Counted from the first letter of the whole stretch, positions 1 through 60,640 are shown. The stretch is DNA of 61,588 nt, filler included, from Sphacelaria rigidula (GCA_964200075.2; 7 parts of 7 records of this genome joined end to end with filler, not necessarily neighbours in it), one strand, 5' to 3'. The notes: generated by a model from the letters alone, not told the origin. A program made the numbers and translations.

Positions 1-48
1 GTCAAATGACTTAAGGCAAGCAACAAATGAGTACGCCCCCCCCCCCCC
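1..48 (+). mobile_element. 3' tip of RTEX-like LINE family A followed by oligo(C)
   Basis: GTCAAATGACTTAAGGCAAGCAACAAATGAGTACG then a C-run. Matches the 3' end of the long LINE copy at 47826-49507. Confidence 0.85.
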
Positions 49-8814: not shown

Positions 8815-8883
8815 TCGCGTGGGCCTCTCTCCTTACTCTGATAGCCTCTTTCACTTCCTCATCCCACCATTTTACTGCTGCTG
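8815..8883 (-). mobile_element. 5' junction of a longer LINE copy cut by the contig end (AAVKWWDEEVKEAIRVRREAHA)
   Basis: WWDEE motif typical of the LINE ORF2 endonuclease-RT linker. Starts right after a C-run on the minus strand. Confidence 0.65.
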
Positions 8884-8922
8884 AGGGGGGGGGTGGTGGG
8901 TCCGTGTCCGATATTTTTCTCT

Positions 8923-14446: not shown

Positions 14447-14635
14447 GTGCACCCAGGGGGCAGCGAAACAAAAATTCAGGACACTTAGGCCCCAAGGTCG
14501 AAAATTCGAGTTTTTAAGGGCGCGGGGGGGGGGGGGGGGCCCCGAGCCGGGGGTCCCCTGGTTTTTGGCCGAGGCGGGGGNNNNNNNNNNAAAACAAACG
14601 ACCAGCAGGCCCCGCGGGAGAGGTGGCGATGGGGT

Positions 14636-14669
<34 letters not shown>

Positions 14670-17732: not shown

Positions 17733-17772
17733 TCAATGGTCAAACGACTAAGGCGAGAAACGAATGAGTACG
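17733..17772 (+). mobile_element. LINE family A 3' tip between C-rich tracts
   Basis: TCAATGGTCAAACGACTAAGGCGAGAAACGAATGAGTACG. Confidence 0.8.
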
Positions 17773-19203
17773 CTCCTCGACCCCCCCTCCTTTGATACAA
17801 CCCTTGAGTGACGAATTTTGGAGTTTGAAAACCTTCTCACCTGGGGTTCGCAAATCAACCCATGTTACGTCACAGCATCAAGACCAAATTACACTTTTTC
17901 GCTGAACGTGGGTAGAAAACGACTTCAACCCTTTGACGGCGAAAGTAGATCATCCATTGAATCGGCATCACTTACTTGAGAACAGTATGGATGATCCAGA
18001 TGGACGACCCTGCTAAGGGTCAACTGAGAAGAACACGCGGTCCAGCGGGCATGTTCCGGCACTCAGTCGAGTCCTCGCGTCGGCTTTAGTGATCCAGTTA
18101 TTTCATCTACATGCTGACAGCCGTACCCACGGGCTACCATGGTAGACCATGCCAGAAGTGTGTGTGGGTACCACCCCATAGAAGGGGAAAATTCCCACAA
18201 CTGTCCGTCGAGGAACAACATTTGCACATTTAGTTTTTCACTATTCAACGGTTGATATCTGCCTTTTTGTTGCCCAAGCTATCGAGGGAATATTAGCGAC
18301 GCCGGGCTGTGGCGAGAGAGCACGTTCTCGAAACACAATTCATCTGGATCTCGAGAAAAGTTCAACAGCTCAAGAGTTGGGCGTCGGTCGAACGCGGAGG
18401 AGCGATGTGGTCGTGAAGCTTGATAATATATTTACGTTTTATCCCTGTATTACAGTAGGCTACACCAGAAAACTAGGTATGCCCCCCCCCCACCCCCCCA
18501 CCCCCCAACCCCTTCCCCCTCATGTCTCCCCCCCCGCCGCCTTTGAGCTGACAAGGCTAAAGGCCGAGAGCAGCAGCAACAGACTATGGCTCCCTGCGGC
18601 AGGAACAAGCAATACAAATATCAAGTATCAAGACAGCTGCGTGCATGCATCACCTGAAAAAGGTCAACAGCAGCTACGAGTAGCAACATTTTTACACCAG
18701 AAATCGATGAATGCACACGAGAGACCAGGAACACGTGCCAACTGAAATGCATTAGTGTATCCCTCAAGTAAAAATCAAACCAATACAAGTAAGTCAGAGG
18801 CTTTGTACCTCTTCCAACAACTGACATCGACATCACGCAATGTACGACGAGATTGTATAGTTGCAAAATTTCCAGTTTCCTGACACCACAACACACACGA
18901 ACAAAATAACAGTAATTCCTCGCATACCCAGCCATCCATCTTCACTTCCTGCCTCCTCCTCCCCCCCTCGGCCCCCTTTCATTCTGACGATGCCTTTGTC
19001 CCAAAAAAAGAGACGAAAGCAGCGCACACATCACAAGCAAAAATTCATTCACCTAGCAAGCGGTCCAGTCACGACCCCCCCACACACACACCCTAGGGCA
19101 TTTTTCCCCCCCTGTCCGATTCTCGTAGTCGATCATGTATGTGGGTGGTTCGATTCCGATAGGATACAACCAAGGAGCAAATCTTGGCTCAACGTTTCGG
19201 GGA

Positions 19204-22200: not shown

Positions 22201-24796
22201 ATTCTTGTAATGACCCGTAACACATTCGTGCAACTTGTCAGGATTTAGCTCCTAGAAACGGCGTGAAAGTTTGCAGACGAATGTTTCTAGGGTGATACCG
22301 CCGGATTTTATGGCACACAGATTTTTGGCCCACGGGTTGTTCACTTTTGGGACGTTTGACTCACCTTTCGACCCCCAAACAGGGAAAACCGCCAACACAC
22401 GTCTCGGACATTTTTTGCATCACCCCACAAAAAGCCTCGTCTATTTTTCAGATTTGCTTGGCTCCGAGGTTTCGAGATTGGCCGCCGAACAAAAACTGGT
22501 GCGCAAAAATCTGTGCTTGCCGACCCCCGCCAGTTTGCTTGCCAGTTTGAGCGAACTGGCGGGGGTCGGCAAGCACAGATTTTTGCGCACCAGTTTTTGT
22601 TCTGCGGCCAATCTCGAAACCTCGGAGCCAAGCAAATCCGAAAAGCATACTAGGCTCCTTTTGGGGGGGTGATGCAAAGTGTCCGAGACGTATGTTGGCG
22701 GTTTTCCCTGTTTGAGGGTCAAAAGGAGAGTCATACGTCCCAAAAGTGAACAATCCGTGTGCCGTAACATGCGGTTTAACCATGAACCAGCCTGTACACG
22801 GATATACACAGATGGCACGGCTCATCCCCTAACCCCAGCGTCACGATTGAGCTGTGCTGCCAGGTGATTCTTTCATATCCCCCCCCCCTTCCCCCCTCAT
22901 CCTGTGAAATGCACAGAAGAAACGTAACGAGTCTCAAAATGCTGGAGGTACTTTCATCAAGAGTAGGAACAGTGCTCCATCTCGAGAGGTGTGCATGGTC
23001 AATGGTCATGTAATCACGGCAAGCAACAAATGAGAATGCCTGTCCCACACCCCCACACCCCCTCCCACCCCCCGCTCCCGATACGTAATGACCAGCCCCC
23101 AAGTATCGCACGGTGCGATCTTTTAACGGGAGATTTGAACTTCGCTCTACACCCGGCGCCTTAACCTTGCATTACAATGTCTGTCAAACCCTGAGCTCTG
23201 AACTCACCCCACTTGGCACCGGCAGCCATTTGAGGTTGGCCAAAGCTCCCTCGGTCACAGCCTTGCCGACAACCTGAACCTTCGTTTCGGCCTGGTAGCA
23301 GGGTACATATTCCTGAGGTGCTCTCGGGACAACCTCACACAGATACCATACCCTGCTGCTGGGATCCAAATACTGGTGTGTCAAGCATTTCCCCGCCGGC
23401 AACCAGGCAAAATATGCGCGAGTGCCGCACACAGATGGTACACGGAAACGGAGGAAGCGATAAATGGAAAAGATGAGCGAATAAACCGAGAAGTAAACAT
23501 GGGAAAATACTCGACCGACAAGGACGGGGAGGAAAGGGGGCGATGCCCGTTTGGGTATTTTTCCGCAGGTTTACAACAAACATTTCTCGCGGTCGGTCAA
23601 AATTTTCAGAGGTATGAGTGACTTATGAAACCACAGTAACCTGGAGGTCGTAATCCTGGGTAACATCCCGACATCTCGCTGTGGAGCATAGCTTCATCCA
23701 CACCGAATACACGGAAAGGTACGCCACTGATGGGCGCTGTGCCTCGGGGGAAAAGCCGACCATGGAGACGAACAACAGGTACATGGCATCGACGGAGCAG
23801 CGGCCACAAACTCACGAACCCACAACAATGACCCAGCAACACCCACAAAACAGTGATGCCATAAACTGTCTTGTACCTGCGTAGTAATATCACGTGGACT
23901 CGGCGAATGTCATGTATCACGTATCAACCGCAAAAACTACGTGACGGTCCACGAGAAAACTGATGCAACCCTGAACAAACCGCAACATGTTTAAAAACGA
24001 ACCCTATCTTTACGGAACTCTTCTTCTCCTATATATTTTTCCGCACACAAGCCCGACCACTCAAACCCGTAGTCACAGACTTGGACTTGCGCCTTCCGAG
24101 GACCGTCAATGCTATTCCTCACATGAGTTAGAAGCTATATGTTTTTTTCGCATCTTCTGAGACTCTAAAACAAAGCACAAACAGAGGGGGGGGGGACGTC
24201 GAAAAATCAAAGGAGACAAGACCTGCCCTTGACGTGTTGGTCGGGTGTGACAAAATGAACAGATGAGACCCGCCAGTAAATCGACACAACAGATCCGTAA
24301 CTCACGATTACGTAGCCGTGATATTGGTGACGATAGAACTCCACCCCGTCGTCGTGCGTTTTTCGATGGTAGCGCCCGTTCATTAAAGGGTTTCCCGCAC
24401 CCTCCACTCGCAAGTCGTGCGATACCCCACTGTTTCCACCACGGCGGTTTTTCACATCCGCGCCGGCGCGAGCAAGGTCATCGAGCACACAGTCGATCGT
24501 CGCACAAATATTCACGTGTTAGCGCAAGGTCAGACAGAGATAGTTTCCAAGTAATGCCTCCATCCTGTCCTCCCCGATGATTTTGATGACTCGGGAACAT
24601 GACACACTTGTGTTCACGGGTCGCCTCTTACCACCAACGAACGCAACAAACAGCGACCTCAAAAACAAGCTTTCACGCTGTCTCCATGCACCTGTTGTCA
24701 CTGTCTTCCCCAGAGTCTTGCGGATGCTGGTTGCTCTGCCGAGCGCTGCCCCCTCCTCCACCTCGATGCTGCGTGCCTCCACTCCCGCCCCTAGCT
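19204..24796 (-). CDS. 3' part of a spliced gene of unknown function; exons 24796-24692, 23352-23208 (or 23372-23208), 21030-20935, 20055-19951, 19377-19204 (stop)
   Basis: AG/GT-bounded exons with compatible phases: …RVWYLCEVVPRAPQEYVPCYQAETKVQVVGKAVTEGALANLKWLPVPSG / PVKDRSVIRVFVSPVNTDDENSDNESGTNATQ / SPFEEEDMMD…GGQ / TRGPQ…SSAAI*. Confidence 0.6.
22327..22763. mobile_element. Near-perfect foldback element (arms about 215 bp, tiny loop), intronic
   Basis: AAAAACTGGTGCGCAAAAATCTGTGCTTGCCGACCCCCGCCAGTT is mirrored exactly across the centre near 22545. Confidence 0.92.
22890..23038 (+). mobile_element. Diverged LINE family A 3' fragment flanked by C-rich tracts
   Basis: GAGTAGGAACAGTGCTCCATCTCGAGAGGTGTGCATGGTCAATGGTCA...GCAAGCAACAAATGAG. 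Confidence 0.75.
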
Positions 24797-26467
24797 CTAG
24801 AGTTTCGGTCCGGAAACATATTTTGCGCGTCGGCGCTATTCTGTGGACAAAAAACGTTTGCGATAAAAAGTATTGCACATTGACTTCAAGTCGTGTTTTA
24901 TAATCGCGACACGGACACCAACGGTCACCATCCACGTTACGGACGGCAACGGTATAGGAAAACACGCTGCGGCAAACTTCACTGTCATGTTCCATTACTT
25001 TGTTTCGATCATCATACGAGCTGGGCCAGCCGTACAACGCAGGACCCGTGAGCACATCACAACTTCAGCAGCTTCCCGAATCAGCCCGATTTATGCATAT
25101 CGCAGTGAACTGCAGACTTACCTGGTAACATAGAGCTCCGCCGCTGCTCTATTGGCGCAGTTTTGATGATCACATTATTTTACTGTATCAAGGACCAGGT
25201 ACGTCTCATATCGTGGTGTGATGGTGTTCTCTGAGGAGGGGAGGGGGGGAGGGGGGTTATGTAAAATGCGGCAAAATGACTTATGACGACTTTGACATGC
25301 CGAGTAAAGAGTGCACTGGGAATGCTTGCGGGATGGCATCAAACTCATCAGCAGCTCTGTCATGGGGGAGGACATCCCAGCCGCTTGTCACATATAACGA
25401 GCACAGGAAAAAGTATCCAACTCGGACTGGGCTGCAACGCCTTTCGTCAATCCAATCCTCGATTGTGATCGTTCTTCCTCACAGTTGAGAAGAAAAAAAA
25501 ACTGCCAGATTTTGAGGAAAAAATGGTTTTGTGGGGATTCAAACTCGTAACGCATGTAATTGGCGACTCCTTCACCAGTTGGTCCCCCGAGGTGCAGCGA
25601 TGTCCAACAAAAATTTCCACGCGCGGCCCAATTTCACGACTTTTGAGCCAAGGTTTCACCAGGATCTTCTGTGCGCAAGTGAAAGATTCGTGTTGCGACA
25701 TGGGGCCGTTTTTGGTTTCTTCACAGAGTTACGTCATATTTTAGTTCTTCGTAACAATTTCGAATCGCCCTCATTTTCCTTCCTTTCATTTTTTCTTCGT
25801 ATCCCGCACTGTGTTTCGCATCTTGATGAAAATGTCGCCAAAATTTCAGCGCCCAACTCGTCAAATTCAGCCACGCATCACATATTTTGCCGAAAAAACA
25901 GGTATGTTGGCGGGCCCAGCTTGTACACATTTTCAACTATTAAATAGCCCATAACGAGAACGATGTTTTGGACATCGGTTTGTCATGTATATTTCGAACG
26001 CGATTTTGATTAGTATTGATTTTCTCGACATGATCCATTACGGCTAATTATGGTTTTCATGGCAGACGATCACCGTACGTTCACCAGTTTCCATTTTACC
26101 CGGTCGTGACGAAAGATGAGAGCGACGCAAACCGCACAAGACTCTCGAAAACGAAATACTCGTGTTCGAAATTAAACAAGAAGAAACACCACTTCTCTCA
26201 TTCGTGGATTTTTATATTCGGTGACCTTCTGGTTTCTACTCGCAAACATGCACGGTTAGGACAAATCAGAATTCATACGAGTCGACTCGCCATGACGCGC
26301 AAGCAGTCATGCTGTAGAAGCCGCTGGTCCCGCTGGGTCGNNNNNNNNNNNNNNNNNNNNNNNNNNNNNNNNNNNNNNNNNNNNTTAATTAATTAANNNN
26401 NNNNNNNNNNNNNNNNNNNNNNNNNNNNNNNNNNNNNNNNACGCCCCCCCCCCCCCCCCCCCAAAGT

Positions 26468-26537
26468 ATGCTCCGTCTCGAAAGGGGGGCGCGGTCAATG
26501 GTCAAACGACTAAGGCAAGCAACAAAAAATGAGTACG
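26468..26537 (+). mobile_element. LINE family A 3' tip with (C)n-AAAGT target-site duplication, inserted in a MITE
   Basis: C19-AAAGT at 26444-26467 and C13-AAAGT at 26538-26555. Confidence 0.85.
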
Positions 26538-28330
26538 CCCCCCCCCCCCCAAAGTGCCTGGTTGGAGGAGGTGAAATCCTCACGTAAATCGAAATGGAAA
26601 AAGCCGAGTACAACGAGCAGCTGGGATTTCCCACGCTCGGGTTCGTTCTCGCCAATGTCGCCCATAATATGAGGCGCTTCATGCAGCCTGAACCCCAACA
26701 CCGGGCGCTGTATGACTATTTTTTTATTAACATTTCGGGCTGGTTTTGGGGGGGCTATCGTAGAAAGTGTCCCAGGGTGTGATTTTTACAGAGTAGTATC
26801 GGCCCGCTATCACTCGAAAGCAGGCTCAGCTTGGCTGTTTTCTTCTATGCGAAAGGAGAAACAACACCGTCTTGTACTGTATAAACGACACTCAGGCAGT
26901 GCCCAGCCTGCAGACGTCAGAATTCCCAAAATATTTTTCAACCCCCCAGATTAATCATTCGAAATGCAGCGAGAGATACCAGGCGTCACACAGCAGGAAC
27001 TACAATAATGTTCACACCAAAACAAGGAAGCATGACTCAACCCTTTGGCCGTCAGGGCGGGTGATCTCGTAGATCTAGTTTCCCTGTTTAGGAAGCGAAT
27101 AGTTTACCCATTGAACCTGAACATTCCCCCCCCTTGAAGCATGAGCGTAAACCCCAAGTGACCCACATTCCGATCGTCAAAGGGTTCAAGCGGCTGAAAC
27201 AACAAAGTCGGGTCGGACCCAGAGTATCACAACGAAAACTCAGATGTATTCTGGATACGGCAACTAGTATAGCATTCGGTTAATAGTGTCTGAAAGCACA
27301 ATGACGGAGTTGCTCGGTAAGCTGTAAGCACTCTTAACTCTTAGGCTACGAATCCCCCGGAGATGGACTGAGATGGACTACAGTATGCTACCCTTGGGGT
27401 TCAGAACGGCTGTTTTCTCGCTACACGAAACGCCCTTTGTTATGAACATGTGGATTTTGGGCATCTATAGAGAAAACAGTCCCAGAGAACCACTGACTGT
27501 GTTTTATCCTGCAGTCAAGTACATGCGGAGTCAGTATATGTATGATATGCTGTATGTCTTCGCTGGGTACAACGGCAAGAGAGTCAGCGTTGGCTCGCCA
27601 TTGAACACAGTCTACTGCACGCTTCTGATGTCTCTGCCTAGTGTTGTACAACAACACTACAGGCAGTGTGAAGCTGTTCTGGCAACACAGAGCGGTCAGA
27701 CAAGCGGCAAAGACCACGAACAAGGCAAGAAGCGCGTTGCTTGTTTCCCTAATATTTATGAATGAATGGTCATGGCTAACATATTTATAGGGCTAGACGG
27801 CGAGGTGGTCTATCTGGAGTCCATCTGTAGGGGGAAAAGTGACCATTCTGATCAATCACAACTCTCAAAATTGCCACTCCGCTCCTCTCGGGCCTTGTTC
27901 CTGGCTTCCAGATACACATGATTGACTCACGAGCTTTTCGGTTGTTTTGCGAGCAGGCCCGTACCTCCCTCTCGAAAACCACCACCCCCCGGCCCCTGGA
28001 AACCCCCTGATGTCCCTTGGCTGTCAGCCTGTGAAAGTGTCCGAGGCGACACTCGCGGTCTAAGGGTTGACCGGTCTTACAGCGGAGTTTTTTTCTCCCC
28101 TGTTCCTCAGGTTATCTGTCCCGTACCTTATGTACACACAACACAATGATTTCCATCGGTCAGGGGTACATATTATTAGTACTGCACCATCATTACCAAC
28201 TAACGAGCTGAGTTGAATATATCTCTGCGCGCTTGGGCATGGATGGAGGGCGATAGCACCAGAAGAACGCTGAAATCCGTAAAATATTGCCTTGGAGTGA
28301 GTGTCCGCCATAAGAAAATTCAGTAGCAAC

Positions 28331-34889: not shown

Positions 34890-35034
34890 CTATAGGAATG
34901 CGAAGTCAATGATCGCATGACTGTGACACACAAGATCTTGAGTACACCCCCCCTCTATTAGGAGTAGGAACAGTGCTCCGTCTCGAAAGGGATGCGTGGT
35001 CAATGGTCAACCGACTAAGGCCGGCAACAAATGA
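34890..35034 (+). mobile_element. Tandem LINE tips: family B end, C-run, then family A end
   Basis: GGAATGCGAAGTCAATGATCGCATGACTG...GAGTACA-CCCCCCC-TCT-ATTAGGAGTAGGAACAGTGCTCCGTCTCGAAAGGGATGCG. Confidence 0.75.
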
Positions 35035-42650: not shown

Positions 42651-44065
42651 CGCGAAGAGTCAACTGCTGCGTAAAGTGTACCGTAATTGAAACAGAGGGT
42701 GTTTTGGCAGCATTTTTGCGTCGATAGAGCCACACTCCACATTCACTCCTGCAACTTAGTTTGATTTTTGTTTTTCGAAACGCTTGGGCGATGAGGAGTT
42801 AAATCGCCTCTCTCCGGATACTCTGGGCATTGTCCCACGTGTTGTGGTTCCCACGAACCAGAATATTTCCCGTCAGGTGCCTTAAGCGTACCTTGATTGG
42901 GACACTCACCTCTGCTCTCCAGAGCGATGCATCGGTAGGAGGGCACAAATATTTTTTGACAATAGAATTGTTAGGAGCCCTTGATGTGACCCAAAGCACC
43001 ACTTATGAAATGTGTAACAGTAAGCCAGGAGTATTGTCTTCTAATGTGCTAGGGACATCCCGAATGAACTTGCAAACGGAGATGCCGTGACCCATATTCT
43101 TGTGCATCTAGAATAGTTAGGAGCCCCTGAACCAGACACGACTCTGCGCAAAACGTGCACCGCTACCATAGCATTTTTCCTTGATACGTGATCCGTACAC
43201 AGGGACAGCTGGACATGACTGATGAGGTCGATCAGAGGACACGGCCGGGCCAATCATGATGTAGAAGAGTGGTGCTACATAGCTTGACTGGGCAAGTCAA
43301 AGAGAAGGAAGAGAAGGAAGAGAAAGTGACTTGTTGTGGCCACCCAACACCGTGATAAGCGGAGCCTCCCAACCAGATATTGCGTACGTGAGTACAAGAT
43401 ATACGCCTACTATGGTAGCAAATGGCACCGCATGTAACCGTCAAAACCCGTAAAGACAGGTACCTCTGCACCGTGGTTGATCAGTACTGTAGACTACACT
43501 GAAAAGGTCGTTCACTTGAATACCTTCCTTGCACTTGCATTTCAGAAGCGGGCTTACAGGAAAACAGTCCGTATGATAACAATTCATCATGTGAGCAGGG
43601 TCATCTCTTCAAATTACACAAGTCACTAAACAGGTATATTCGGGAATAGATCGCACCTGGCCCCAGAGACATTATGTAACAGAATCATAGGAGCGCCCCT
43701 TCTTTCGAAACGTTAATCCGAAATCCTCTGTACTCCACTCAAGTTCTTGCGCTTAAATATCCCGATCAGCGTACCAAGATCCAAAACCAAGCTCTCGCGA
43801 AAAAACAACAATAATAATATCCGTACTTGGAAATTTTCAAACGCAGACTCTCACGTTTTGCGCCTTCCCATGGTGCAAGCAAGACGGTACACACGACACT
43901 TTCTACGATAGCCCCCCCTCAAAACCAGCTAAAAGTGTCACGAAAAAAATGGCCATACAGCGCCTNNNNNNNNNNNNNNNNNNNNNNNNNNNNNNNNNNN
44001 NNNNNNNNNTTAATTAATTAANNNNNNNNNNNNNNNNNNNNNNNNNNNNNNNNNNNNNNNNNNNN

Positions 44066-44256
44066 GGGTACTCTTTTGTTGCTGGCCTTCGTCGTTTGAC
44101 CATTGACCACGCATCCCTTTCGAGACGGAGAGGGAGGTGGAGGGGGGGGGTGTACTCATGGTCTTGCATGCCGTAGTCATATGACCATGGACCTCGCATC
44201 CCTGCAAAGCCGGGACAGAGCACGCCGGGTTTCCGCCGGTCCAGGCGAGCAATCAA
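44066..44256 (-). mobile_element. Tandem LINE tips: family B end (44256-44151), C-run, family A end (44130-44066)
   Basis: Minus strand GGATGCGAGGTCCATGGTCATATGACTACGGCATGCAAGACCATGAGTACA-(C)n-…CTCCGTCTCGAAAGGGATGCGTGGTCAATGG. Confidence 0.8.
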
Positions 44257-44792
44257 TCGCCGGGCGCGGAGCGCCGACCGAGCGGAGAGGGAGGAGGGGA
44301 TGACTATTGTAATACAACATCGCGCGCGGAGCTCAAGATAGAAGCTGCCCGCTCGTTGTAGGGAACAACTTGTTCGTCGTTAAAACATACAGAAGTAGTC
44401 CGGTGCGTAACGCCTTGGAGTTTTACTGGCGGGCACGTTGTCTTCCCGCACAAGGTCTCCCCTGACTTGGCCAATCCCTCTCCCACGAGACGGCCACTTG
44501 AACCCGCTAGGCCGTTCCCCTTTTTATCCTACCTAAGCCTTATTCTTCAGAGGAGATGATATATGTACTTGACCATCTGCCGTGCAAACCAGCGCGCACG
44601 GTTTCTTTTGCTCTTGATTGATCACTTCGGGGGAAGGCATTCCGAGTCTGCTGCTCTGTCACGCGCGTAGTCATCACGACTGAATGTTTGCTGGTATTGT
44701 GACTCAGCATCATATTGTACCACAAAACGTTAACGCCTGACTCGTGCAGTAATGAATCTAAAATATTGATTGTTTATTTTTAGCCAGTCGTG

Positions 44793-44972
44793 CAAATCTT
44801 CGGAGTATACATGTATTTACATGTGCACATGATGTTCTCGTATCTATCGTTTCACGTACCGCTACTGCCTTCCTCCATTTTTTTTCAAATCTTCGCAGTA
44901 TTCATGTATTTACATGTGCACATGGTATTCTCGTATCCATCGTTTCACGCACCGCTACTGCCTTCCTCCGTT
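44793..44972 (+). repeat. Tandem duplication, 93-bp period
   Basis: CAAATCTTCG.AGTAT.CATGTATTTACATGTGCACATG... starts at 44793 and 44886. Confidence 0.9.
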
Positions 44973-45020
44973 CTTATTTCATCGTCATCATGGGCATCAC
45001 ACACTTATTTCGTGTATTAG

Positions 45021-48000
45021 GTGGTGGGACAGTTCCGTGAACGTGGGGCTGACCTGGACGATGTACTGCAGCACGTCAACACCCTCAACAAGTCCAACAG
45101 AAAGGATGACTATGTGAGCACTACCAACTGCTGCAAGGTAGCTGTATCTTTGAAATACGTAGCGTACTATCCAGCGTCTAGAAGCTGGGAGCGTGCATGC
45201 GCTGATGTGTGTGCAGCCACAACAGGTCTAACAGAAAAAAAAGGATGGCTACACTGCAACGTAGGGCGTATTTTTCTGTGGCACGAGGATCTTTTTTGGC
45301 ACCTGGAGACCTGGAGGTATGCAAGATGTGCATTAACGGTGATGGCCAGTTCTGTTATGCCGTGAAAGCTTGACCTCGTGAAATTCGCGAATGCAGTGTG
45401 TGTTAGTCGGCTAATCACGGACTTGTTTTGCATGCAGAATAATTGCAAGAGTTCAGCGATCTCTCTTTGTTTGTTGTTGCAGCACCAAAATATTCATTCT
45501 GAACATAAAGCTGCCCGACTATTAGACGACGTGCTCCGGTGAGGCAGATGGTTGCACGTAGAAGTACATGGCGAAAAACAATGTCGGTGTGAGGAAGTAT
45601 CTGCGCTCAAGCCAACTCTAATTGGAGCCGTTCAAAATTCCTGTTGGAAACTGGCTTTTGTGTCCTTCTCCGTCGATTTACGCCCGAAAAGGGGGCTAGG
45701 CGGATGTTGACGCCTTGGAATAACTTCCTCTACTCGTCGAGACCGTTCCAGGGCAACTTTGCCTTTCCCGCTGGCCGCACCCTTGTGTTCGGCCAAACCA
45801 GGTCGAACACGGAGTTTCAGTAAGAAACGGGCAGGTGATCAAAATTTCCCCCTGTTTTTGATAGCTTGACTGTTTCTTATTGAAAATCCGTGAGTGACCG
45901 AAAATGAAAGTGCAGCCAGCCGGAAATGCAAAGTTGCCCTGGAATGATCTCAGTGAGTAGAGCAAGTCATTCCAAGGCGTCAACATCCGCCTAGCCCTCT
46001 TTTCAGGCGTAAATCGACGGAGAAGGACCCAAAAGGCAGTTTCCAACTGGAATTTTGAACGGGCCCCATTGGGGTTGGCCTCAAGGAAAAAAAACCTGTC
46101 CCACAGAGATGCCCTATCATGGGCTTGGAAATCGATTTCAAGCATCTGCCAGTTAGCAGTTGACCGTGCCCGCTAAAGCCTGAAGCGAGCTTTCGTCTCG
46201 CTTGTAAACTCCACGAAAGAAAACAATTCCCTTAAGGGCTCAAGTTCAACCCTGTCTCTCAGATAATATTGTTCTCGTTGATGCTAACCCTACGTCCCAC
46301 GGCGACTTTCTGACTGTCAGCTGCTTCACCCTGACAAAGCCTAACCCCGCCGAGTTGCACTGTTTCGTTTCTTCCGTTGATATCAGAAACCTTTCGTTTC
46401 TCGAGAAGCACTCAAGGGAGATGCGCGCACGGCAGGAGGCATGACTGCTCAGCATCTGTACCCTGTTTACGACAGACTGGTACGTGCTGACGTATTTTCT
46501 TTTTTCGTGAATTCTTGCATGTGTCGCCGTTGCGAACGGGGCCGGTTGGCCATGTACAAGCCGATCAACCCTACAATAACCGAGTGATGAACCCGACCAA
46601 CCGAACGAGGCAGTTCGATAGAATCCGGTCGTTGTTTAGGGTGCCGCCCCGCAGAATTATCATGTGTAGGGTATGTAATGCAATGTATAGTTGTCAACAT
46701 TTGAACTTTTTTTTTTAATCGAAAACGATATTTTGAAAAACAAATTCGGTTACCAAGACTCGTCATGGTTACTGTCCCATCTCAAACTCTGAGAATCAAA
46801 ATATTTGAGTGTCCGACACCGATTCCCCCCCAAAGTACTGTACATGTAGGTCTTTTTTACGACCAACTTTTTGAACGTGTTAACGGCTGACCGATCATCG
46901 GGAACCCTACGAGTGTACGCCCCCTGGTTCTCGCTCTCTGATATTTTCTCTCAGCCGAGCCGATCCGAATCATTATCATGTACAGTTCTTCGGATTTTTT
47001 TTTTGTAGAATCTGCAAAGAAAGCGTGTTTTTGGACAGTGCACAGTCAGTAACCCCACCTCGACGAACAGGGCTCTACTCCATGTTCCAACAACACAAAA
47101 TTGGGAAATGTGTCCCGAGGACGGCCTGCTTATCTTTCCAGCGCCTACCGACTCTCAAACGTTCTAGTGAAGATGACGAGTCGTATGCGAAAGCTCCGAT
47201 TGAATGAGTCAATGTTTTGAGCGTTGACCGCTGTAAGGGCGCGCAGTAATTTTTCTGGCGCCCACTAGTTTTTTTCAAGGCCGTTTCTTTGGTGCCTTGA
47301 TTTATACTCGAGTTTTTTCTGGCGAGTTTTTTCCAATACTAACCGCGGGTACGCCCATGTCGCACCGACAGTTGAGTTCGTGGCGGGTGTTTGCAGGAGG
47401 CGTTCAATCTACCAAGTACGTTGCAGAGTCACTAGACAACCCCTCTCGAGTGGGAGTTATTTTCGACGTCAGTTTTCTCCACAGGGAAGACCCCGTCAAG
47501 CTGGAGATAATCCTTTGCGTAGGCAGATATTCGCTGTATCTTCTCCCACGGCAAGAAGTTTCGACACATCCAGCGTCCTACTTTTGAAGTTCCGGCCACT
47601 TGTTTTTCTGAAGAGGGGTGTGTTTGCAATTCGTTACTTAAGGAAGGAAAATCGTAAATTTCAACAAAGAAGCGCTGAACATTGGCAGCGTCATTACTAC
47701 CCTATGGGTGGCGACGAAGAGTGATAATGGACAATGACGAATGATGGTGCTGCCCGCTGTCCCATAACTGAGGGAGGGTAGATGCCATGAAGGCGATGGG
47801 TGTAACACCTCCGAGGGGGGAGTGCGCGTACTCATTCGTTGCTTGCCTTAGTCGTTTGACCATTGACCACGCATCCCCCTCGAGACGGAGCACCGTTTCT
47901 ACTCCTAATGGAAACAGCCTCCAACATTTAGGTGCTCTCTATATTTCTTCCATACATGACTGTACACAAAAACCTTTGACATATCTTATCCCTGTCCTGT

Positions 48001-51000
48001 TTCGCATTCTATGGCCACCATGTGTATCCTAGTAGTATAGCCAAATTTTTCTCCCTACTGTTTAATGCATCAAACGATTTCATTTCACCTTCGTTCACTT
48101 TCCGAACTTTCCCCTCTGGCCCGTCCCATTCCTCCTTGTATAGTTCACATCCTGCCTCTGTATGAGTTCTGCTCTCTACTTCTTTGCCACAGGGGGCAAA
48201 TCTGTCCATGTACTTCCTCCTCCACACGACGACTGGTATACTTTCTTCTCCACCCGAAATCGCAGTTTCAATTTTTTCTCGCGGCGTCTATTGGGCCATG
48301 CAGATATGTTTCCATCCCTATCCCCTCCCTCAACCCCCGTATATCTTCAGGTGTTTTCCCTCATCTAATTGGGGTCTGAGGTTATATTTCCCCCTCATTT
48401 CTATCATGTCTCTCACTATCGTCTTGTACTCCCAACCTTCACCAATGTAGAGTATTTCGTCTTGGTTTCCTCCTATCTCCTTCCATACTTTCTCGACAAC
48501 CCTATCCCACCTTATTCTAACCTGCCCTTTCGTCATTTTCTTCCATACAGCCCTATCAACTATGACTGGCAATCTCTTTCTCTGCATGTTCTTGACGCTG
48601 TATTGACATCGCAATTTTCTCATGTCTCTGATTGTTTTAAGTGGGTACATTCCCAACTCTGTTCTCAATGCTGCATAGCTACGTTCCCCTCCCACACTTT
48701 TCCTGCATATTCCAGTTTTGATACAATCACGTTCATTGGGATACATCTTTCAATCCTAGCATCTAGGTGCGAGTCGCTGGGGATCACGTCCATCCTGCTT
48801 ATCTGTGACTGACCCTTTTCGATTACTTTATTCATGTGTACATCCCGAGAACAGTTTCTCGAGATCTCTACGGCAAGGTATGTGTATTGGTCTACAATGC
48901 GCAGTTCATCTTTTCCCCACTTCCATTTGAACTTTACTCGATTTTCCTTATCCTCGTTCCATACGAGTACCGCGCGTTTGTTTACGTTGGCTTTCACTCT
49001 CTATTTCTTAGTGTATTCTAGCGCCTCCTCTACTACTAACTTCAATCCTTCTAGTATTTCTGATATCTCCACGAAACCGTCCGCGAACATCAACCTGATA
49101 CCATGTCTGCCCCCACCTTGATTCCTTCCTTTGCTTCTTCTATTGCTATTATCAGGCCATTATTATTTCTCCGAATAAAGTGCGTGATGACGTACATCCT
49201 TGTAAGAATCCTTGTAAAATATAAAAATCTTTCGATATTCCCCCGTTTAGCATCATCACACTCGTGGCACACTCTGTTATCTTCTTCATCATTCTCCACA
49301 TCTCTCCTCTGATGCCAGTTTCCCACATCTTTTCCCGCAGCCCATGTCTCCGTACCGTGTCACAGGCCTTTTGTACGTCCAGAAAAAAACAGTACATTGC
49401 CAGCCCGGTGTCTTTCCTACCTTGAATAATCTTACCTAGTGTGTACACATGGTCTACGCAACCACGGTCTGGTCTAACACCTGCTTGCCCGTCACTGATG
49501 CCTACGAGGGGGGGGCGGGGGGAGCGCGTTTCCAGTATGTTGGTTGTATTGAAGAGATGAAGTCTGCACTCCCAGAAGGTACCGTTAGTTCCTTCGACAT
49601 GATCTCCACCAGGTATTTCGGCTTCATCCCATGTTGTGGTGCCAGCTATCGTGAACAGTATGTCTGGTGCTCGGGAAGTCGCAGCAGCATTTGCACACTT
49701 GTTTTTTGTGTCACTGGCGAATACCGCACGAGTTTTGTCCTGTGCGTAGTACGCGAAGTTGTTGATGGTATCTGGTGCTCAGCATCCACGGTATCCATGC
49801 GCTATTTTTGTTGCTGCCTAACGAAACGGTACATGGTTATGCCGCACAAGTGAACACTGTACAAATCAGCGGAAAGCAACGGTATCTACCTCAGGTCTCC
49901 GAGAGCTGATGGTGAGGCTGTTTGCACTCCTACGTAGCGGTATGGAGTTATCTATGGCAAAAGGTTTTGCAAGCAGCAGTACTGTATTGTTTCTCGCTAC
50001 CTCGTTGGCGTGCGACTGAAAAGGGTACACTGAAAAGGGTACTCCATTCCAACTTCAAAGATGGCATTTTCCTGTTATCCCATATACTCTGGTGCAGAAC
50101 GGATTTATGAGGCCACAGATGTTTCTAGCCGTGGTACGTGCACCGCAACTGGAACTACGTGATATGTGGAGGTTGGTCCCAAGAGTCACCCCCCTCCCCC
50201 TCCCCCTAGGGATGCGTGGTCAATGGTCAAACGACTAAGGCAAGCAACAAATGAGTACGCCCCCCTGCCCCCCCCCTCCCCCCATTCCCCCCGGGTACTG
50301 GAGTATGGAGGCGTCATTTTGAAGAAATTAACGGGTAGTGCCGGCGAGTACTGGGCAGTACAGCACTGGGCATAGAATAAACCCGGTATGTACCGGAAAG
50401 ATGCCAGGTAGACCGAGTATCGGGTTCGCGCCGGTACTGCGGGTACTCTACATGAAGGCGAATAGTGACCCCCTTCTGGCAGAACGTGAATCACGCGGCC
50501 GTGTCCTTACGGCCTGTTCGAGATCCAGTCTTACACGGATGAATCATTGTATAGGTTCACCGTTCACCTCCCTTGCAACATGAGTCACTGGAAGATGGAG
50601 TAAATTAAGATTGATGAAGGCGCGCTTGAGATGCGGGTCAGCGACTTATTCAGTGTCTAAAAATGGTGTCTGGAAAAAGTCACTGCCCGAACAGTTGATT
50701 GTTTTCGGATTATAAGAAGCGGTCTCCAGAAGATTGATGATGATGATGGTGGTGGTGATTATATTTAGTTGAAATAATAGAAAATAACAATTAGCAATGT
50801 GAATGATGACAATACTAATAACGAAAAAAAAGTATAAAAACATGGGAACAATGACCATAGTGATATTGATGTAATATCAGTCATGACAGTAGTAACAAAT
50901 ATCAAAAACAACAGTAACGACAACCGCAATAACAGTGATGATGACTGATAATGATCAAAATCAACACATCAATACCCAACAGAAAAAAAATGTGTACCTA

Positions 51001-52651
51001 AATTGATGGATGATGATCACGTACACGGAAACAGTATGAAATCGTACAAAAACGGCACCAACACCGCACAGTTCGCTTCACCACCTTTAACTGAGGTGCC
51101 TCCAAAACCCGGATACTGTATGGGGTCCTCGCCGATACGGGGCGGCCGGTGCTAACATCTTGTACTTGACGGGCTGGTGAAGATACACGCTCTAGTACCC
51201 ATCGAGCACTGTGAGTTGGGGGCCAAACGCGTGTTACCCATTATTTGGCGTATGTTCAACGCTCCTTTCCGCTTCCAGTAGGTCTTTTTCTTCGAAGATT
51301 TGAGTGGGTCGCGCCGAAGGGTTGTTTCTCTGTTGAAAATCGGTGAAATATTCTTTTTTTGCATGAATCACACCACGTCGTAGTTTTGCAAAAGGTTTTG
51401 TTTTTTCCTCCATGTCCGTTGCTTCGTATCGCTGTGTCTTGACATTTGTGCCCCTTATGATTGCAAAGTTCAAGGCCGGCTTGCTGTTCAAGAGCATAGT
51501 ACAGAAGCCGCTGCTGGGGGACGACGAAGAAGAGGATACCTTGGGACGCTTCACTCGGCTGTATCTTAATCGCTTCAGGGATAACATACTTTTAGAAAAG
51601 GGATGCCGGTTAGAGGTGGGTATATTGTAAATTCTTCAGTGATGCTGTTCTCATGGCTTACCGAGACCGGAGGGGAGAGGGGGGGGGGGGGACTTCACCA
51701 TAGAGAGAACACTTGAAGTGCCTTTGCTCAGTTATGTGACAGGGGTGTAGAAAGATGAAGTAGTGTTACCTTGTCAAATTTTGAACATGGTTTATGGATA
51801 TTCAGAGCGGTCTGCGTAGGGGTGACATTGTCTTCCATTTTTGGTTGATGGACTGCAGAAAATTCCTCTTCACGAGGAGGACATTTGGGGACGGTGTTGG
51901 ATGCTGCCGGCGTGTATCTACCGCCTAGCGACAATATGCCAATAGCGAGGGAGACAAGAGGCCGTATTTTGGAGCAGCTGGGCTATTGACAGTTTTCTTT
52001 TTTGCTGCTGTGCGTTGGGCGTATATTCGATCGTCCCACATGCACCGTGCTTTTAGAACTGCTCCAATACAGCGGGCAGTTGGTTGCTTGATGCGGCCGT
52101 GTGCTGGGAGTGTGTTAGGGTGTCGCACACGCAGTGTGTTCCTTGCGCTGTGCTCCTGGTGTAGGTATGCAAGCGGCCCAAGCGTGCGCTTGAGATCAAT
52201 CGTTCAACCCCGAAGCTCTTGAGATCTTTAATGCGGGAGCAACTTTTTCTATCGGTACCGTGTCCTAGCACGTGCACAGGGGCATGTATGGGTCTGAAGT
52301 GACTCCTTCGCGGTCAAATCGTTTTCAAACGGCGGCGTTATATGATGAGAGCCTTCACCCCAGCATGCTGCAGGTGTTTGATGATGAAGGGGTAAGCTGT
52401 TCCGATAGTTCGGGTACGACGATGGTACAAGGTTCGTGACGCTGGAGGCACCTTGTGGTCTTGTCGTCCGTTTTACTGTTTTATTCAGCTCTCGTGTCCC
52501 CCCCGCCGTCTTGTTCAAACATGGTTTCCCCCAGCCAACCGCCAAGGAGGTTTTCCTGGACATGCTGGTGAACCATCTTTCTCAGCTCGTGGGGGGTGTG
52601 GGAACGGTGGTCCCTTGGCACAACGTGCGGTTGGCGCTCTTCCCTAAAAAG
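45021..52651 (+). CDS. Two internal exons of an unknown gene: 45021-45113 and 52489-52651
   Basis: TAG|…|GTGAGC and CAG|…|GTACAG boundaries. The phase-compatible join gives WWDSSVNVGLTWTMYCSTSTPSTSPTERMT-I-SRVPPAVLFKHGFPQPTAKEVFLDMLVNHLSQLVGGVGTVVPWHNVRLALFPKK. The frame of the first exon is ambiguous. Confidence 0.5.
45611..46079. mobile_element. Foldback element / palindromic MITE (about 470 bp)
   Basis: TCCTTCTCCGTCGATTTACGCC...GCTAGGCGGATGTTGACGCCTTGGAAT is mirrored at about 45968-46028. Confidence 0.88.
47826..49507 (-). mobile_element. 5'-truncated, decayed RTEX-like LINE (family A): RT plus C-terminal Cys/His knuckle
   Basis: Motifs QAGVRPDRGCVDHVYTL, FFLDVQKACDTV, QGFLQGC, MFAD, QYTYL, ALRTELG, KLKLRFRVG, PCGK..ESRTH...C..Y. 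Ends …IRSRNGAPSRGGCVVNGQTTKASNE*. Clade assignment is by motif recall. Confidence 0.9.
50208..50259 (+). mobile_element. LINE family A 3' tip between C-rich tracts
   Basis: AGGGATGCGTGGTCAATGGTCAAACGACTAAGGCAAGCAACAAATGAGTACG. Confidence 0.88.
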
Positions 52652-52707
52652 GTACAGGATGTGGTTCAGCTGTCATGCGGACGTTCCCCCCCCCCCGCAC
52701 ATGGTTA

Positions 52708-52777
52708 CGTGCTCCGTCTCGAAAGGGATGCGTGGTCAATGGTCAAATGACTAAGGCAAGCAACAAATGAGTACGCC
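52708..52777 (+). mobile_element. LINE family A 3' tip at contig end, preceded by a C-run
   Basis: GTGCTCCGTCTCGAAAGGGATGCGTGGTCAATGGTCAAATGACTAAGGCAAGCAACAAATGAGTACGCC. Confidence 0.88.
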
Positions 52778-53389: not shown

Positions 53390-56300
53390 CTCCATCGCCG
53401 CGTATTGAACCAGCATGTTTGCGCCCGCCTTGCTGGCCGAGTACACCCCCGCGGTTTTGAACTTGGCGGTTGCCCTGATACCCGTCGCAGAGGTGTTCAC
53501 GATAATGGATCCCTTGTCTCCTGACTTAGCCATAGCAGGGATCTGCGTACATAACGCAAAGGAATCGCATTTACAAAAAAAGGGAAAGCAGTAGGGCATG
53601 TTGCACGATAGAAAAATTGATGGAGAGAGAGTTTTCGCATACTAATTCATTGTTCCATGAACCCAGCCGTCGTGATGGCCGTACCCACGGTACAAAGATC
53701 AAGAAAACCCCCCTGATAGAAACTCATACGAGAAATCGACTTCGGAAGAAAGTAGTTGGCCGAGCTTGTTTGACGAGAGTTGACGCGTTGTGGAAGAAAG
53801 CGCTGACCCAATCCGCGAGACAAGAGTGCAAGGCGTGTACCGGAGGAGGGTGTACACATGATCTTACATGCCATAGTCATAGGATTATTGACCTCGTGCC
53901 CCTACAAAGCAGGGACGGAGCACGCCGGGTTTTCATCGGACCAGGCTTGCAATCAACCACCAAGCGCGAAGCGCTGTGGTGCGGTCGGCGAGTCGCTTAA
54001 AGGGTGAGCTGCATCCTGCCAAGACTGTTCGGTCCGAAGCGTACCGATTATGTTGCATTTGGATGACAGCCTCCAATTTGTTGCTTCATTTTCTGGTATC
54101 GGCACTTCCAGAGACAGCCACGGCCTACATACGGCATCATGGGTGTCTCATCATTTCAACATCACGTAGTATGATCATCCCCTTTGCGCGGAATCGATGT
54201 TGTCCCACCCCGCAAAATATGATCCAGCTCGATCACCATCATGGTTACCGCAGGAGCAAACGCAAGTGCGCAAAATAAATCGGTAACTTGGCTACCTAGC
54301 TTACGGAATGAGTGGTGCTTTTCACGGCGTCATCGCCAACCGACGTCAACCCCACAGGGGATCCGACGCGTGTGTAATGCGTGAGAGAACCGCGTGCTCA
54401 GAGGACCGCACCAGAATTTAAGCACCCCTATGGTTAGGGTTAGGGTTAGGGTTAGCGTTGGGGTTGGGGTTGGGGTCAGGAGCGTATTCCCTGCAGGGAC
54501 TGACCCGATTGGTTTTGAAAAAAGCCGATCCGGAGGTGTTTTGGACGACGGCGCGGTCCTCTAAGCGCGCGGTCCTCTCACGCATCACAGCGTGTACCGA
54601 GGGGGGGGGGTCTACTCATTTGTTGCTTGCCTTGGTCGTTTGACCATTGACCCAAATTAAAGTAGTGGCAAATAGCAAATAACGAATAAAAAGACAAGAC
54701 GAAGGAGAAAGGAAAAATGACCAGAGACTGGAGAACGCATTGAACAGGAAGATACAATACACAAAAAACAAAACATATACACCAGTCGCTCAACCGTCAC
54801 TTAGACTCCAGGCAACCGCGGACAGAACACTCAGGTCTGAGTCATTCTCAGCAAAAGCATAATGCCAGTTCACAACATATCACAAAATATTACCGAGTGG
54901 TCGAAAAAGAGTAAACAACAATGCTCGGCTGTGTTGCACAAAATGTAATTCGTGGGAAGACCGCGTACTTTTTGGACCGGATCGGAAGTTGAACACCCCA
55001 GGATCGACGTCTTTCGAAACCGCTCGGGCAAGTCCCTGCAGCGACCGCGCCCCTGACCCTGACTCTAACCCTAACCCTAACACTAACACTAACCCTAACC
55101 CTGAACCTAACCCTAACCATAGGGGTGTTTGAACTCTTATGTGCTCCAAGTAGCACGCGATCCTTCCACGCATTACATAGGCGTAAGGTGCCAGGTTCAC
55201 ACCTGGTATGTCCCAGAAATGCAGAACCTTGTCTCCATCCTATGATGCCCATACCTGGTACTTGAAGCAGAAGATGAGAGACTTGAGGTTGATGTCCAGA
55301 AGGGAAGTCGCCATTTCATCCGTCATCTCGGCGAACGAAGTAGCCTGGAATATGCCGTGGTTGTTGAACGCCACGTGCAGGCCGCCGTAGGTAGACACGG
55401 TCATGTCCACCATGTTCTTGCAGTCGGCTTCCTGCTCCAGCAACGACAAGAAAGCAATTACAAGAGAATAAACAGCAAGAAACTACACAGGAGACCAAAG
55501 AACGCAGTGCTTCAATGGGAATATATATGTGATCTTCGTATTCCTCGGGGACCCCAAAACGCTACTACTGCTGTACACTATTTCGTACCTTGGAAGCATC
55601 GCCGGCCACAACGAGAGCTTCGCCCCCGGCAGCCTTGATCTCATCAGCTACCAGCTTCAGCTTTTCTTCAGTCCTAGAGACTAGAACCACCTGAAGGGGG
55701 AGCACATACGAAGCAAATCAAACACAGCAAAGCACGTGAGAGTTTACTTCACCATGCGAGTATGTCGAGAATAAAAGTATGGCTGAAATATACGTTTGAT
55801 GTTAGTACAGTCATGATGGCAGGCTAGACGCCTGAGATTGAGACCCTTCTTCATGGCGCCGCGCCCGAGTTAGTCTTTACCGGTGTAATGCGTGAGGGGA
55901 CCGCGTGGTTAGAGGACCGCATCGGAAATTCAACATTCCTACGGTTAGGCTTAGGGTTAGGCTTAGGGGCGTTGTACCTGCAGGGGCTGGCCCGATTGGT
56001 TTCGAAACACGTCGATCCTGAGGTGTTTTTAACTACGGCGCGGTCCTCTACGCACGCGGCCCTCTCACGTATTGCACCGGTACATTTCGAGACTGATCGG
56101 TCCTCTGGATTTTTAGGAACGTTTTTAAAGGCGAAATACTCCAGGGTAGGCAGGATATCTATAACGCGTGGGAGAACTGAGAAGCAGCTCGGTGCATCGG
56201 TGACGATTACACCCTTTTCTTCATCGTCTCTCCATTATCATTCACCACATCACCTCACACCGTAAGCCATGTAGACTCACATGAAACCGATATAAAACAT

Positions 56301-59879: not shown

Positions 59880-60640
59880 ATACGGGAGAGGAGAGCGTGA
59901 AGATGGTGAAGAAGTTGGGAACAGTACTTGGATGCTCGCAAACGACGAGTAATACAGCATTGAGAGCAGAGTTGGGAATACACTCACTTGAAACTAACAG
60001 AGACATGAGGAAATGATGTGGCAATATAGCGTAAAGAAAATGCAGAGAAAGAGATCGATGATAGCTGTAAATAGTTGATGAGGCTTTATGGAAGAAACCA
60101 CGAAAGAGCGGCCTGGAATAAGGTGGGATAGAGAAGTGGAGAGAGTATGGAAGGAGATAGGAGGGAACCAAGACGAAATACTGTCCATAGATGAAGGCGC
60201 GGGGTGCAAGGCAAATGTAAGAGACATGATGGAAATGAGAGGAAAATGAGCGCCCAGACGCAAGTAGACGAGGAAGAACACCTGAAGATGTGCGGGGGGT
60301 TGAGAGAGAGGATATAGGGGTGGACATATATTCGCATGGCCCAATGGACGCGGCGAGAAAATTGAAACTGCGATTTCGGGTGGGGCACCTGGACCTGCCA
60401 GAAAAAAAAAAGATATTTACCAGTTGTCGAGGGGAGGAGGAAGTAGATGCACAGAATTGCCCCCGTTGTGGCAAATCAATAGAGAACAAAACTCATACAA
60501 CGGCAGAATGTTAACTGTACAAGGAGGAACGGGACGTGCTAAAAGGGGAAATGCGGGGCGTGAACGAAGGTGGCATGAACTCGTTTGATGCATTAGACGG
60601 TAGCGAAAAAGCGATGGCTATACTGTAATTGGAGGTAGAT
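59880..60640 (+). mobile_element. RTEX-like LINE family A fragment (C-terminal region), starting after a C-rich tract
   Basis: NTALRAELG, GPMDAARKLKLRFRVGHLDL, CPRCGKSIENKTHTTAEC. Homologous to 48030-48700. Confidence 0.88.

Follow-up and report, generated by a model that had tools for sequence, protein, structure and literature searches.

Introduction

The closest described relatives of the element reported here are long interspersed nuclear elements (LINEs) of the RTE-X type from the brown alga Ectocarpus. In the annotation notes of the Ectocarpus transposable element library (2025 curation, PMC12477816), RTEX-1_Ec32 is described as 'single EN-RT ORF; (C)n 3'', i.e., one open reading frame (ORF) for an endonuclease (EN) and a reverse transcriptase (RT), with a 'C-rich' target-site duplication (TSD) and RTEX-4_NV as the best blastp match. 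RTEX-2_Ec32 carries the remark '(C)n termini/TSD', and the best blastp matches of the RTE-X families are RTEX-4_NV and RTEX-1_BF. The same notes list the non-autonomous families RTEX-N1 and RTEX-N2, which have C-rich TSDs and only their last 60-100 bp in common with the autonomous elements; for RTEX-N1, the entries read '60 bp 3' end 83% RTEX-1/RTEX-2' and 'can be present in tandem'. Within these notes, (C)n ends are given for RTE-X families only, with RTE families ending in (CAA)n and CRE families in (CA)n, and LINE/RTE-X is the largest Ectocarpus LINE group, with 16,418 copies and 3.41% of the genome. Young RTE and RTEX families are also named in the account of the Saccharina genome (PMC4421812). 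A literature search returned no paper on a poly-C tail of a retrotransposon lacking long terminal repeats (non-LTR retrotransposon): judged by titles and the first lines of abstracts, the papers found on poly-C, retrotransposons and target-primed reverse transcription concern LINE-1 and no C-tailed LINE, and the passages retrieved from the RTEX non-LTR literature give no defining tail features. Here, we analyzed a LINE of this kind in a 61,588-nt stretch of DNA, filler included, from Sphacelaria rigidula (GCA_964200075.2), hereafter the window.

A preliminary description of this DNA had proposed that a short repeat scattered along it is the extreme 3' end of an RTEX-like ORF with an almost absent 3' untranslated region (UTR). 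Our reading, to which we assign a probability of roughly 0.8, is that the long copy at 47829..49504 on the minus strand is a dead, 5'-truncated LINE with a single ORF for an APE-type endonuclease and an RT, of the RTE-X type of Ectocarpus, lying amid shorter 5'-truncated copies, that the ORF ends 5 nt before a (C)n tail, and that the signal for the RT would lie in the last ~60-100 nt. The window itself is made up of seven ~8712-nt pieces, joined by 100-nt linkers (N44-TTAATTAATTAA-N44) at an exact spacing of 8812-8813 nt; therefore, copy density, linkage, distances and neighbourhoods across the linkers mean little.

Results

The long copy and the end of its ORF

In element orientation, the decayed copy at 47829..49504 contains part of the RT, then a Cys/His motif and then the C-terminus, with several frameshifts and two in-frame stops. 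It opens inside the RT, immediately 5' of ...SDGQAGVRPDRGCVDHVYTL (the QAGxRPxRxCVDH motif), and continues through FADG, a YADD-type motif, to the Cys/His motif APCGKEVESRTHTEAGC, which is without its first Cys where relatives read CPCG, and to the C-terminus ...IRSRNGAPSRGGCVVNGQTTKASNE, followed by the stop. The RT part could be read only via several frame changes, and the last 150 codons form a single frame from the Cys/His motif to the end, interrupted by TAG and TAA. The largest open piece gave a weak RVT_1 match of 28 bits, under the Pfam cut-off of 29.6, and no Pfam family was found in the remaining four open pieces. Only the RT and the C-terminus have been retained; the endonuclease region is gone by 5' truncation. 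The stop TGA at 47832..47834 (minus) lies at the position that ends three database relatives (P0002, P0003 and P0006), with GAGTAC at 47828-47833, and is followed by GTACG and then C-rich sequence. The copy is bordered by a C-rich TSD, of which one copy, CGCGCACTCCCCCCTCG at 47812..47828 (minus, 17 nt), replaces the usual (C)n tail on the 3' side, and the matching one, CGCGCTCCCCCCGCCCCCCCCTCG, lies at 49505..49528 (minus, 24 nt) on the 5' side. These similar flanks had been taken for a decayed TSD, and this agrees with the C-rich TSDs in the notes on the Ectocarpus RTE-X families (PMC12477816).

Five database proteins were 68-73% identical to the RT piece of the long copy. Three of the five (P0002, P0003 and P0006) reach the C-terminus, and all three stop at the same codon in the same frame, ending in ...SRNGAPSRKGCVVNG(Q/L)MTKASNK, i.e., ...VVNG(Q/L)MTKASNK. 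The intact relatives, the 1360-aa P0003 among them, end in ...GCVVNGQMTKASNK, which is the frame and the stop read in the preliminary description. P0003 has an Exo_endo_phos domain (APE-type endonuclease) at residues 170-392, RVT_1 at 740-989 and no other Pfam family; thus, one ORF encodes both enzymes, the APE-type endonuclease being N-terminal, and RNase H is missing, as expected of the RTE-X clade. Its look-alikes in the ESM Atlas were generic EN-RT clusters only, with taxa mostly unrecorded. The nearest named proteins were entries called 'unnamed protein product [Ectocarpus sp. CCAP 1310/34]', with 54-71% identity, one of which ends in ...NGAPSRKGRVANGQMTTASNK. A brown-algal host also agrees with the public runs that contain the window, one of which is labelled 'algae metagenome'.

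With the last 150 residues as query (X standing for the two stops), a full HMMER search returned 406 hits at E<=1e-3, the majority of them short ORF fragments from decayed copies. Among the best 150 of these 406, the terminal motif, scored as a pattern, was present in 91, and the other 59 stop short of the end. The stop is shared by 45 of the 91, 32 read through into Pro-rich sequence and 14 read through otherwise. The Pro-rich read-through, K-(R/C/L/Y)-V-(R/P)-P-P-P-P, is the translation of GTA CGC CCC CCC behind a mutated TGA, and several database fragments open with PPP(P) immediately before their truncated start. Relatives of 38-40% identity end in ...GCVVNGxxAMAAx after a freely varying spacer; in P0158-P0191, which fall in this range, GCVVNG lies about nine residues before the stop and the spacer ahead of it is long, of low complexity and variable in length. 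More distant hits, of ~25% identity, carry the C-terminus RGRPR..W, which we take to be of the RTE type.

A (C)n tail 5 nt behind the stop codon

When a 26-nt repeat pattern was scanned over public collections, two loci were found in metagenome contigs, one in genome contigs and none in viral contigs. These external loci are a marine metagenome contig (L001), a whole-genome shotgun contig (L002) and a contig inside a bacterial metagenome-assembled genome (L003), the genome-contig match, presumably mis-binned. In all three, the frame is open over the last 143 codons and ends in ...AAC AAA TGA, followed by GTACG and a C-run (C8, C10 and C13 in L001, L002 and L003), beyond which the DNA is unrelated. 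Only GTACG separates the stop from the tail, both in window copies and in the three external loci, and none of the latter has a conventional 3' UTR or tail, which the preliminary description had named as evidence that would speak against it; the almost absent 3' UTR that had been proposed is thus what we observed. In agreement, C-rich sequence comes directly after GAGTAC(G/A) in all eight window copies whose 3' end is intact and free of a linker.

Contigs of four public runs (X1, X3, X6 and X7) were aligned to the 8.7-kb piece at 44066-52777, and the places where many contigs leave the piece (loose ends) were listed; these are the best-supported ones, with a further 5404 beyond them. Loose ends behind 50265 were supported by 617 (X1), 626 (X3), 64 (X6) and 68 (X7) contigs, and their consensus runs on for 12 (X7) to 14 (X1, X3 and X6) more C's before it turns into unlike sequence. 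In X7, the consensus beyond 52774 is C25. Since GTACG and a C-run follow the stop in the window, in the external loci and in the contigs, we conclude that the tail of the element is (C)n. The C's had been noticed before and explained as read-through; they are there, and they are not incidental but a regular tail.

The C-runs could also be target DNA only, left by a LINE without a tail of its own that is site-specific for pre-existing (C)n/(G)n microsatellites. Such an element would account for the C-runs flanking both ends in 10 of 11 copies, for the GAGTA of the long copy adjoining a TSD that is also found upstream, and for the 57 runs of C or G in the window that reach 7 nt or more, of which only nine lie behind ends of the LINE; the remark '(C)n termini/TSD' in the Ectocarpus notes (PMC12477816) can be read in the same way. 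We consider this improbable, because the C-run begins exactly after GTACG in 3/3 external loci and in more than 600 contigs each of X1 and X3, and at 54612-54652 a C10 run lies downstream of the copy, with no C-run upstream. Moreover, several of the other C-runs in the window trail other repeat families and may stem from those elements, in which case they would not have to predate them.

With the external loci at hand, the long copy could be assigned to a subfamily that has +5 nt and +1 nt relative to L001-L003 (47900-47965, minus). As a result, the reading frame is shifted over ~16 residues, with ..VMYGRNIESTxMLE.. where the external loci have ..NIWKKRNERPNVGG.., and it is restored at ...IRSRNGAPSR.... 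At 47958, contigs without the 5 nt made up 96,496 of a depth of 113,118 in X1, and by pattern count the shifted-frame form was found in 14 and the other form in 71 of the best 150 of the 406 database fragments.

A total of 132,391 X1 contigs were placed on the 8.7-kb piece. The summed X1 word depth, which is taken from contigs and is not a copy number, was ~1.8-2.6 million in the bins of the short repeats, compared with ~0.17-1.2 million over the body of the LINE and ~65-100 where bins are single-copy. Clearly, copies of this family are very numerous, those of its 3' end most of all.

Short copies and their junctions

A self-blastn search of the window with 47812-49528 as query returned 11 rows: the copy itself, nine short 3'-end pieces (1-47, 17733-73, 22937-23034, 26469-549, 34954-35034, 44068-130, 50209-60, 52709-76 and 54598-652) and a second long copy. 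All nine pieces align to the last 41-99 nt, so the short repeats of the preliminary description are indeed the 3' end of the LINE ORF. Read with their flanks, the short copies range from 34 to ~141 nt, with differing 5' ends. Their 3' ends read ...AA(A/T)GAGTAC(G/A) and then a C-run or a C-rich tract, except for the damaged copy at 34954-35034 and those cut by a linker.

On the plus strand, the fragment at 1..48 is cut by the window start and followed by G and C13; a 39-nt fragment with a C-rich tail at 17733..17787 has C9 immediately upstream, and a ~141-nt one at 22897..23075, also with a C-rich tail, has C10 and C6 there. The region 26441..26555 (plus) consists of ACG and C19, AAAGT, a ~68-nt fragment that starts at ATGCTCCG, G and C13, and AAAGT again; the ACG-C19 is the tail of a previous copy, itself cut off by the linker, and the C-run with AAAGT on both sides (26463-26467/26551-26555) is a TSD. 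Two further, diverged short copies with C-runs of their own stand head-to-tail ahead of those at 34954 and 44068. In the first of these pairs (34895..35034, plus), the older diverged fragment with C7 is followed by a ~80-nt fragment with a damaged 3' end and no tail; in the second (44066..44205, minus), the units are separated by a C-rich spacer with C9, and the downstream tail is cut by the linker. The remaining short copies are a 50-nt fragment with a long C-rich tail and a C-rich upstream flank (50209..50290, plus), behind which lie the loose ends at 50265; a 66-nt fragment that starts at GTGCTCCG (52709..52777, plus), with C11 13 nt upstream, loose ends before 52709/52710 and a tail cut by the linker; and a 41-nt fragment followed by A, C10 and TCG (54598..54652, minus), the sole copy without an upstream C-run.

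The longer copies are also placed behind C-runs. The second long copy (59880..60630, plus; 78% identical, with a self-blastn extent of 59952-60624) has C9-T-C6-T-C4-T-C3 immediately before its start and lacks its last ~220 nt, in place of which stands an unrelated 217-bp tandem repeat (60670-61093; 2 copies, 83% matches, internal inverted repeats). At 8815..8893 (minus), the 5' junction of another long copy enters the element between endonuclease and RT, right after C9, and its 3' part is cut by the linker. The observation that 5'-truncated copies start directly after C-runs was therefore confirmed at 59855-59879 and at 8885-8893 (minus). For the piece near 8883, the position of the C-run held, and only its listing as family-unassigned did not, as 8815-8880 translates to VKWWDEEVKEAI..., matching P0003, and is of the same family.

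In total, 10 of the 11 copies with a readable 5' junction have a C-run of at least 6 nt no more than 30 nt upstream of it, versus 1.7% of random positions. These C-runs fit C-rich TSDs together with insertion into older tails, and in many contigs a tail is joined directly to a fragment start, e.g., in 53, 44, 18 and 16 contigs of X1. C-rich TSDs are a trait of the curated Ectocarpus RTE-X families, here seen in the 10/11 junctions and in the explicit pairs at 26469 and at the long copy; the (C)n 3' terminus, another such trait, is present in the window element as well. Thus, an ORF end 5 nt (GTACG) before (C)n, C-rich TSDs, and nested or tandem copies in older tails are all observed.

We also considered a short interspersed nuclear element (SINE) with a Pol III head derived from tRNA, 7SL or 5S RNA, which the preliminary description had named as the case that would speak against it. 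No tRNA gene and no Rfam match were found in the window, and a comparison of the upstream flanks revealed no common head, the only shared sequence being another tail copy in the two tandem cases; this candidate was rejected.

Head-to-tail units could, on the other hand, be a satellite that captured the 3' end of the LINE and spread by unequal crossing-over or replication slippage. It would account for the tail-to-head joints in many contigs, for the window's two tandem pairs and for a third unit placed after an earlier tail. We hold it to be very improbable, as the majority of window copies stand alone amid unrelated flanks, the units within the pairs differ in length and age, and the copy at 26469 has its C-run-AAAGT TSD.

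The start at ATGCTCCG may be either a truncation hot spot or the 5' end of a discrete ~67-nt tail-only subfamily. In the latter case, the short repeats would largely be a non-autonomous retroposon (ATGCTCCG...GAGTACG(C)n), mobilised in trans by the LINE and placed in head-to-tail arrays by, e.g., template jumping of the RT. Directly before 52710, a long C-run was found in 371 (X1), 361 (X3), 54 (X6) and 64 (X7) contigs, and the LINE sequence continues before 52709 in 534, 486 and 71 contigs (X1, X3 and X6). The base preceding TGCTCC is A in three of the four runs versus G in the LINE, the window copy at 26469 starts with ATGCTCCG where the LINE has GGTGCTCCG, and in dozens of contigs a tail runs directly into this start. 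Besides, the notes on the Ectocarpus RTEX-N families give the 3' end alone as common to the LINE and state 'can be present in tandem' (PMC12477816). Set against this, the window copies start at many points, with lengths of 39, 41, 50, 66, ~68, ~80 and ~141 nt, they lack a head, match neither tRNA nor Rfam families and have no upstream flank in common, and among the best-supported loose ends listed, a hot spot and a family look alike. On balance, we regard a tail-only retroposon as possible and rather unlikely, and keep to plain 5' truncation of the LINE.

Possible sequence constraint at the 3' end of the ORF

The preliminary description had also placed the recognition signal for the RT inside the coding sequence. 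Over the last 33 sense codons, L002 differs from L001 (or L003) by no synonymous and six nonsynonymous changes, versus 26 synonymous and 27-28 nonsynonymous ones in the 110 codons upstream (P about 1.4e-4 for zero synonymous changes); the last 60 nt differ at two sites, compared with ~20% of sites upstream. This pattern suggests that an RNA signal may overlap the last 33 codons. Support for the claim is indirect, coming from the lack of synonymous changes and from the 60-bp 3' end that the non-coding RTEX-N families have in common with the autonomous elements in the Ectocarpus notes. Because the element has essentially no 3' UTR, any RNA signal for the RT must share its sequence with codons.

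Other features of the window

The linkers are located at 8715-8814, 17528-17627, 26341-26440, 35154-35253, 43966-44065 and 52778-52877, and several piece ends lie within C-runs or copies of the LINE. Two N10 gaps are present within pieces, one at 14581-14590 amid runs of G16 and G31, the other at 15799-15808 inside a short C tract with C23 and C19 nearby; the assembly seems to break at C/G homopolymers.

A different, second LINE RT was found at 8900-10103 (minus; …QCGFRPGRSTVDMMF…FIDPRRAYDSLDR…). It ends within the RT and is followed by a short C9-tailed sequence and then by the RTE-X copy described above. Other repeats that end in a C-run lie at 14524-14666 (minus), 15383-15403 (minus), 8885-8930 (minus), 59830-59863 (plus), 52936-52965 (minus) and 5494-5511 (minus), with ...GGCCAAAAACYAGGGGAC..CGGCTCGG-C16/C31 and ...GAGAAAAWWTTCGGACACG...-C8-11 as examples; they may represent additional families with (C)n tails, perhaps non-autonomous partners of the RTE-X LINE. 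Another repeat, GACACTTTCTACGATAG-(C)n-AAAACCAGC...AAAAGTGTCAC, has an internal C-run between short inverted repeats and was matched four times versus none expected, at 26748-26771 (minus), 29008-29031 (plus), 29240-29263 (minus) and 43895-43918 (plus).

In four small runs guessed to be RNA, a 7352-nt contig was identical to 51468-51613, and low depth was observed in a few other bins (44939-45229, 46394-46684, 46976-47266 and 51632-51922). This gives a weak hint that the long copy sits in an intron of a gene; translated exon-like pieces near it revealed no recognisable host gene.

Discussion

A plausible route of insertion can be proposed by analogy with homopolymer-tailed LINEs and with RTE-related retroposons, in which the first base of the TSD correlates with the 3' repeat (PMC6007223). 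The endonuclease would nick the G-rich bottom strand of a C/G tract, and the G-run so released would anneal to the (C)n tail at the end of the RNA, priming its reverse transcription (target-primed reverse transcription). The RT would usually fall off within the first 40-140 nt, yielding the ubiquitous short repeat. Each insertion would leave a new C-run, so that old tails would become preferred targets and arrays would build up. The cis signal recognised by the RT would lie in the last ~60-100 nt, in the codons for ...RSRNGAPSRKGCVVNGQMTKASNK. The long copy, in which GAGTA is followed at once by the TSD (CGCGC...), could be accounted for if a 3-nt CGC microhomology, and not the tail, had served for priming.

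Several points weigh against a (C)n-tailed LINE that scatters its truncated 3' ends in this manner. At one point of the 8.7-kb piece, ~40% of the contigs (371 vs 534 in X1) have (C)n and A directly before TGCTCCG, which resembles a discrete short subfamily more than random truncation. The copy at 34954-35034 lacks a tail, and no C-run precedes the copy at 54612-54652, though C10 lies downstream. Priming of a C-tail by a G-run and the specificity of the endonuclease are both argued from the analogy, and the RTE-X label would hold by virtue of the Ectocarpus curation and shared features, rather than by an RT phylogeny. As for the recognition signal, the synonymous-site comparison amounts to one independent pair, L001 and L003 being near-identical, and the missing synonymous differences could reflect recombination at the 3' end. 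In an alignment fold of eight near-identical sequences, none of the 18 predicted pairs showed covariation, and the single-sequence fold had a z of -1.35, with 21 of 200 shuffles folding equally well; both folds are neutral as to a structured 3' recognition element of the stringent LINE type. Finally, the composite nature of the window weakens the arguments from density and linkage.

A bolder version, which we offer tentatively and think unlikely to be right as a whole, is that the last ~100 nt of the ORF are an overlapping code. The codons for ...RSRNGAPSRKGCVVNGQMTKASNK would double as an RNA module bound by the RT, which would freeze their synonymous sites, and a ~67-nt piece of it with the (C)n (ATGCTCCG...GAGTACG-Cn) would by now be a tail-only retroposon. 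Its arrays would arise when the RT, on reaching the 5' end of a short RNA, jumps to the C-tail of the next. If true, this would be among the smallest retroposons known, with very high copy numbers, and the persistence of GCVVNG in the relatives of 38-40% identity would mark an ancient signal of this kind.

The (C)n-tailed LINE with 5'-truncated copies, which we prefer, would explain the abundance of C/G homopolymers in this genome (57 runs of 7 nt or longer in 61 kb), the assembly breaks at homopolymers and the identity of the commonest short repeat. For transposon biology, it is also a clean example from nature of a LINE that all but lacks a 3' UTR.

The kind of element is known, because a C-run at both ends, the lack of an ordinary tail and tandem units are already recorded for the RTE-X LINEs of Ectocarpus. 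The discovery is accordingly modest: the Sphacelaria element is a member of the brown-algal (C)n-tailed RTE-X LINEs. Compared by description, not by sequence, it is like RTEX-1_Ec32 and RTEX-2_Ec32 in the single EN-RT ORF, the (C)n 3' end, the C-rich TSD and the pattern of thousands of mostly 5'-truncated copies, often in introns. It differs from them in its host, and the library notes mention neither a stop 5 nt from the tail nor fragments of 40-140 nt. With RTEX-N1_Ec32 and RTEX-N2_Ec32, the short copies have in common a 3' end shared with autonomous elements, C-rich TSDs and possible tandem arrangement; according to those notes, however, the Ectocarpus families have bodies of their own (188-607 bp) with an unknown 5' head, whereas the short copies of the window are the 3' end of the LINE alone.

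LINEs of the RTE clade and their SINEs (Bov-B, RTE-1 and Au-like) likewise combine a single EN-RT ORF with a simple-repeat tail and extreme 5' truncation that gives SINE-like copies. Malik and Eickbush reportedly noted in 1998 that the 3' UTRs of RTE-clade LINEs are short, as in the window element. Their tails are AT-rich or (CAA)n, in contrast to the C homopolymer found here, and in this comparison the protein of the window family carries a C-terminal Cys/His motif (CxC-x8-H-x4-C). The L1 elements have a poly(A) tail and a T-rich nick site; the tail pairs with the nicked homopolymer primer, and the TSD begins with the base of the tail. This logic of homopolymer tail and primer, and the placing of new copies in old tails, would be the same in both systems. 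The element described here belongs to another clade, its tail base is C and not A, and the tail, which is not a product of polyadenylation, has to be templated in the master element.

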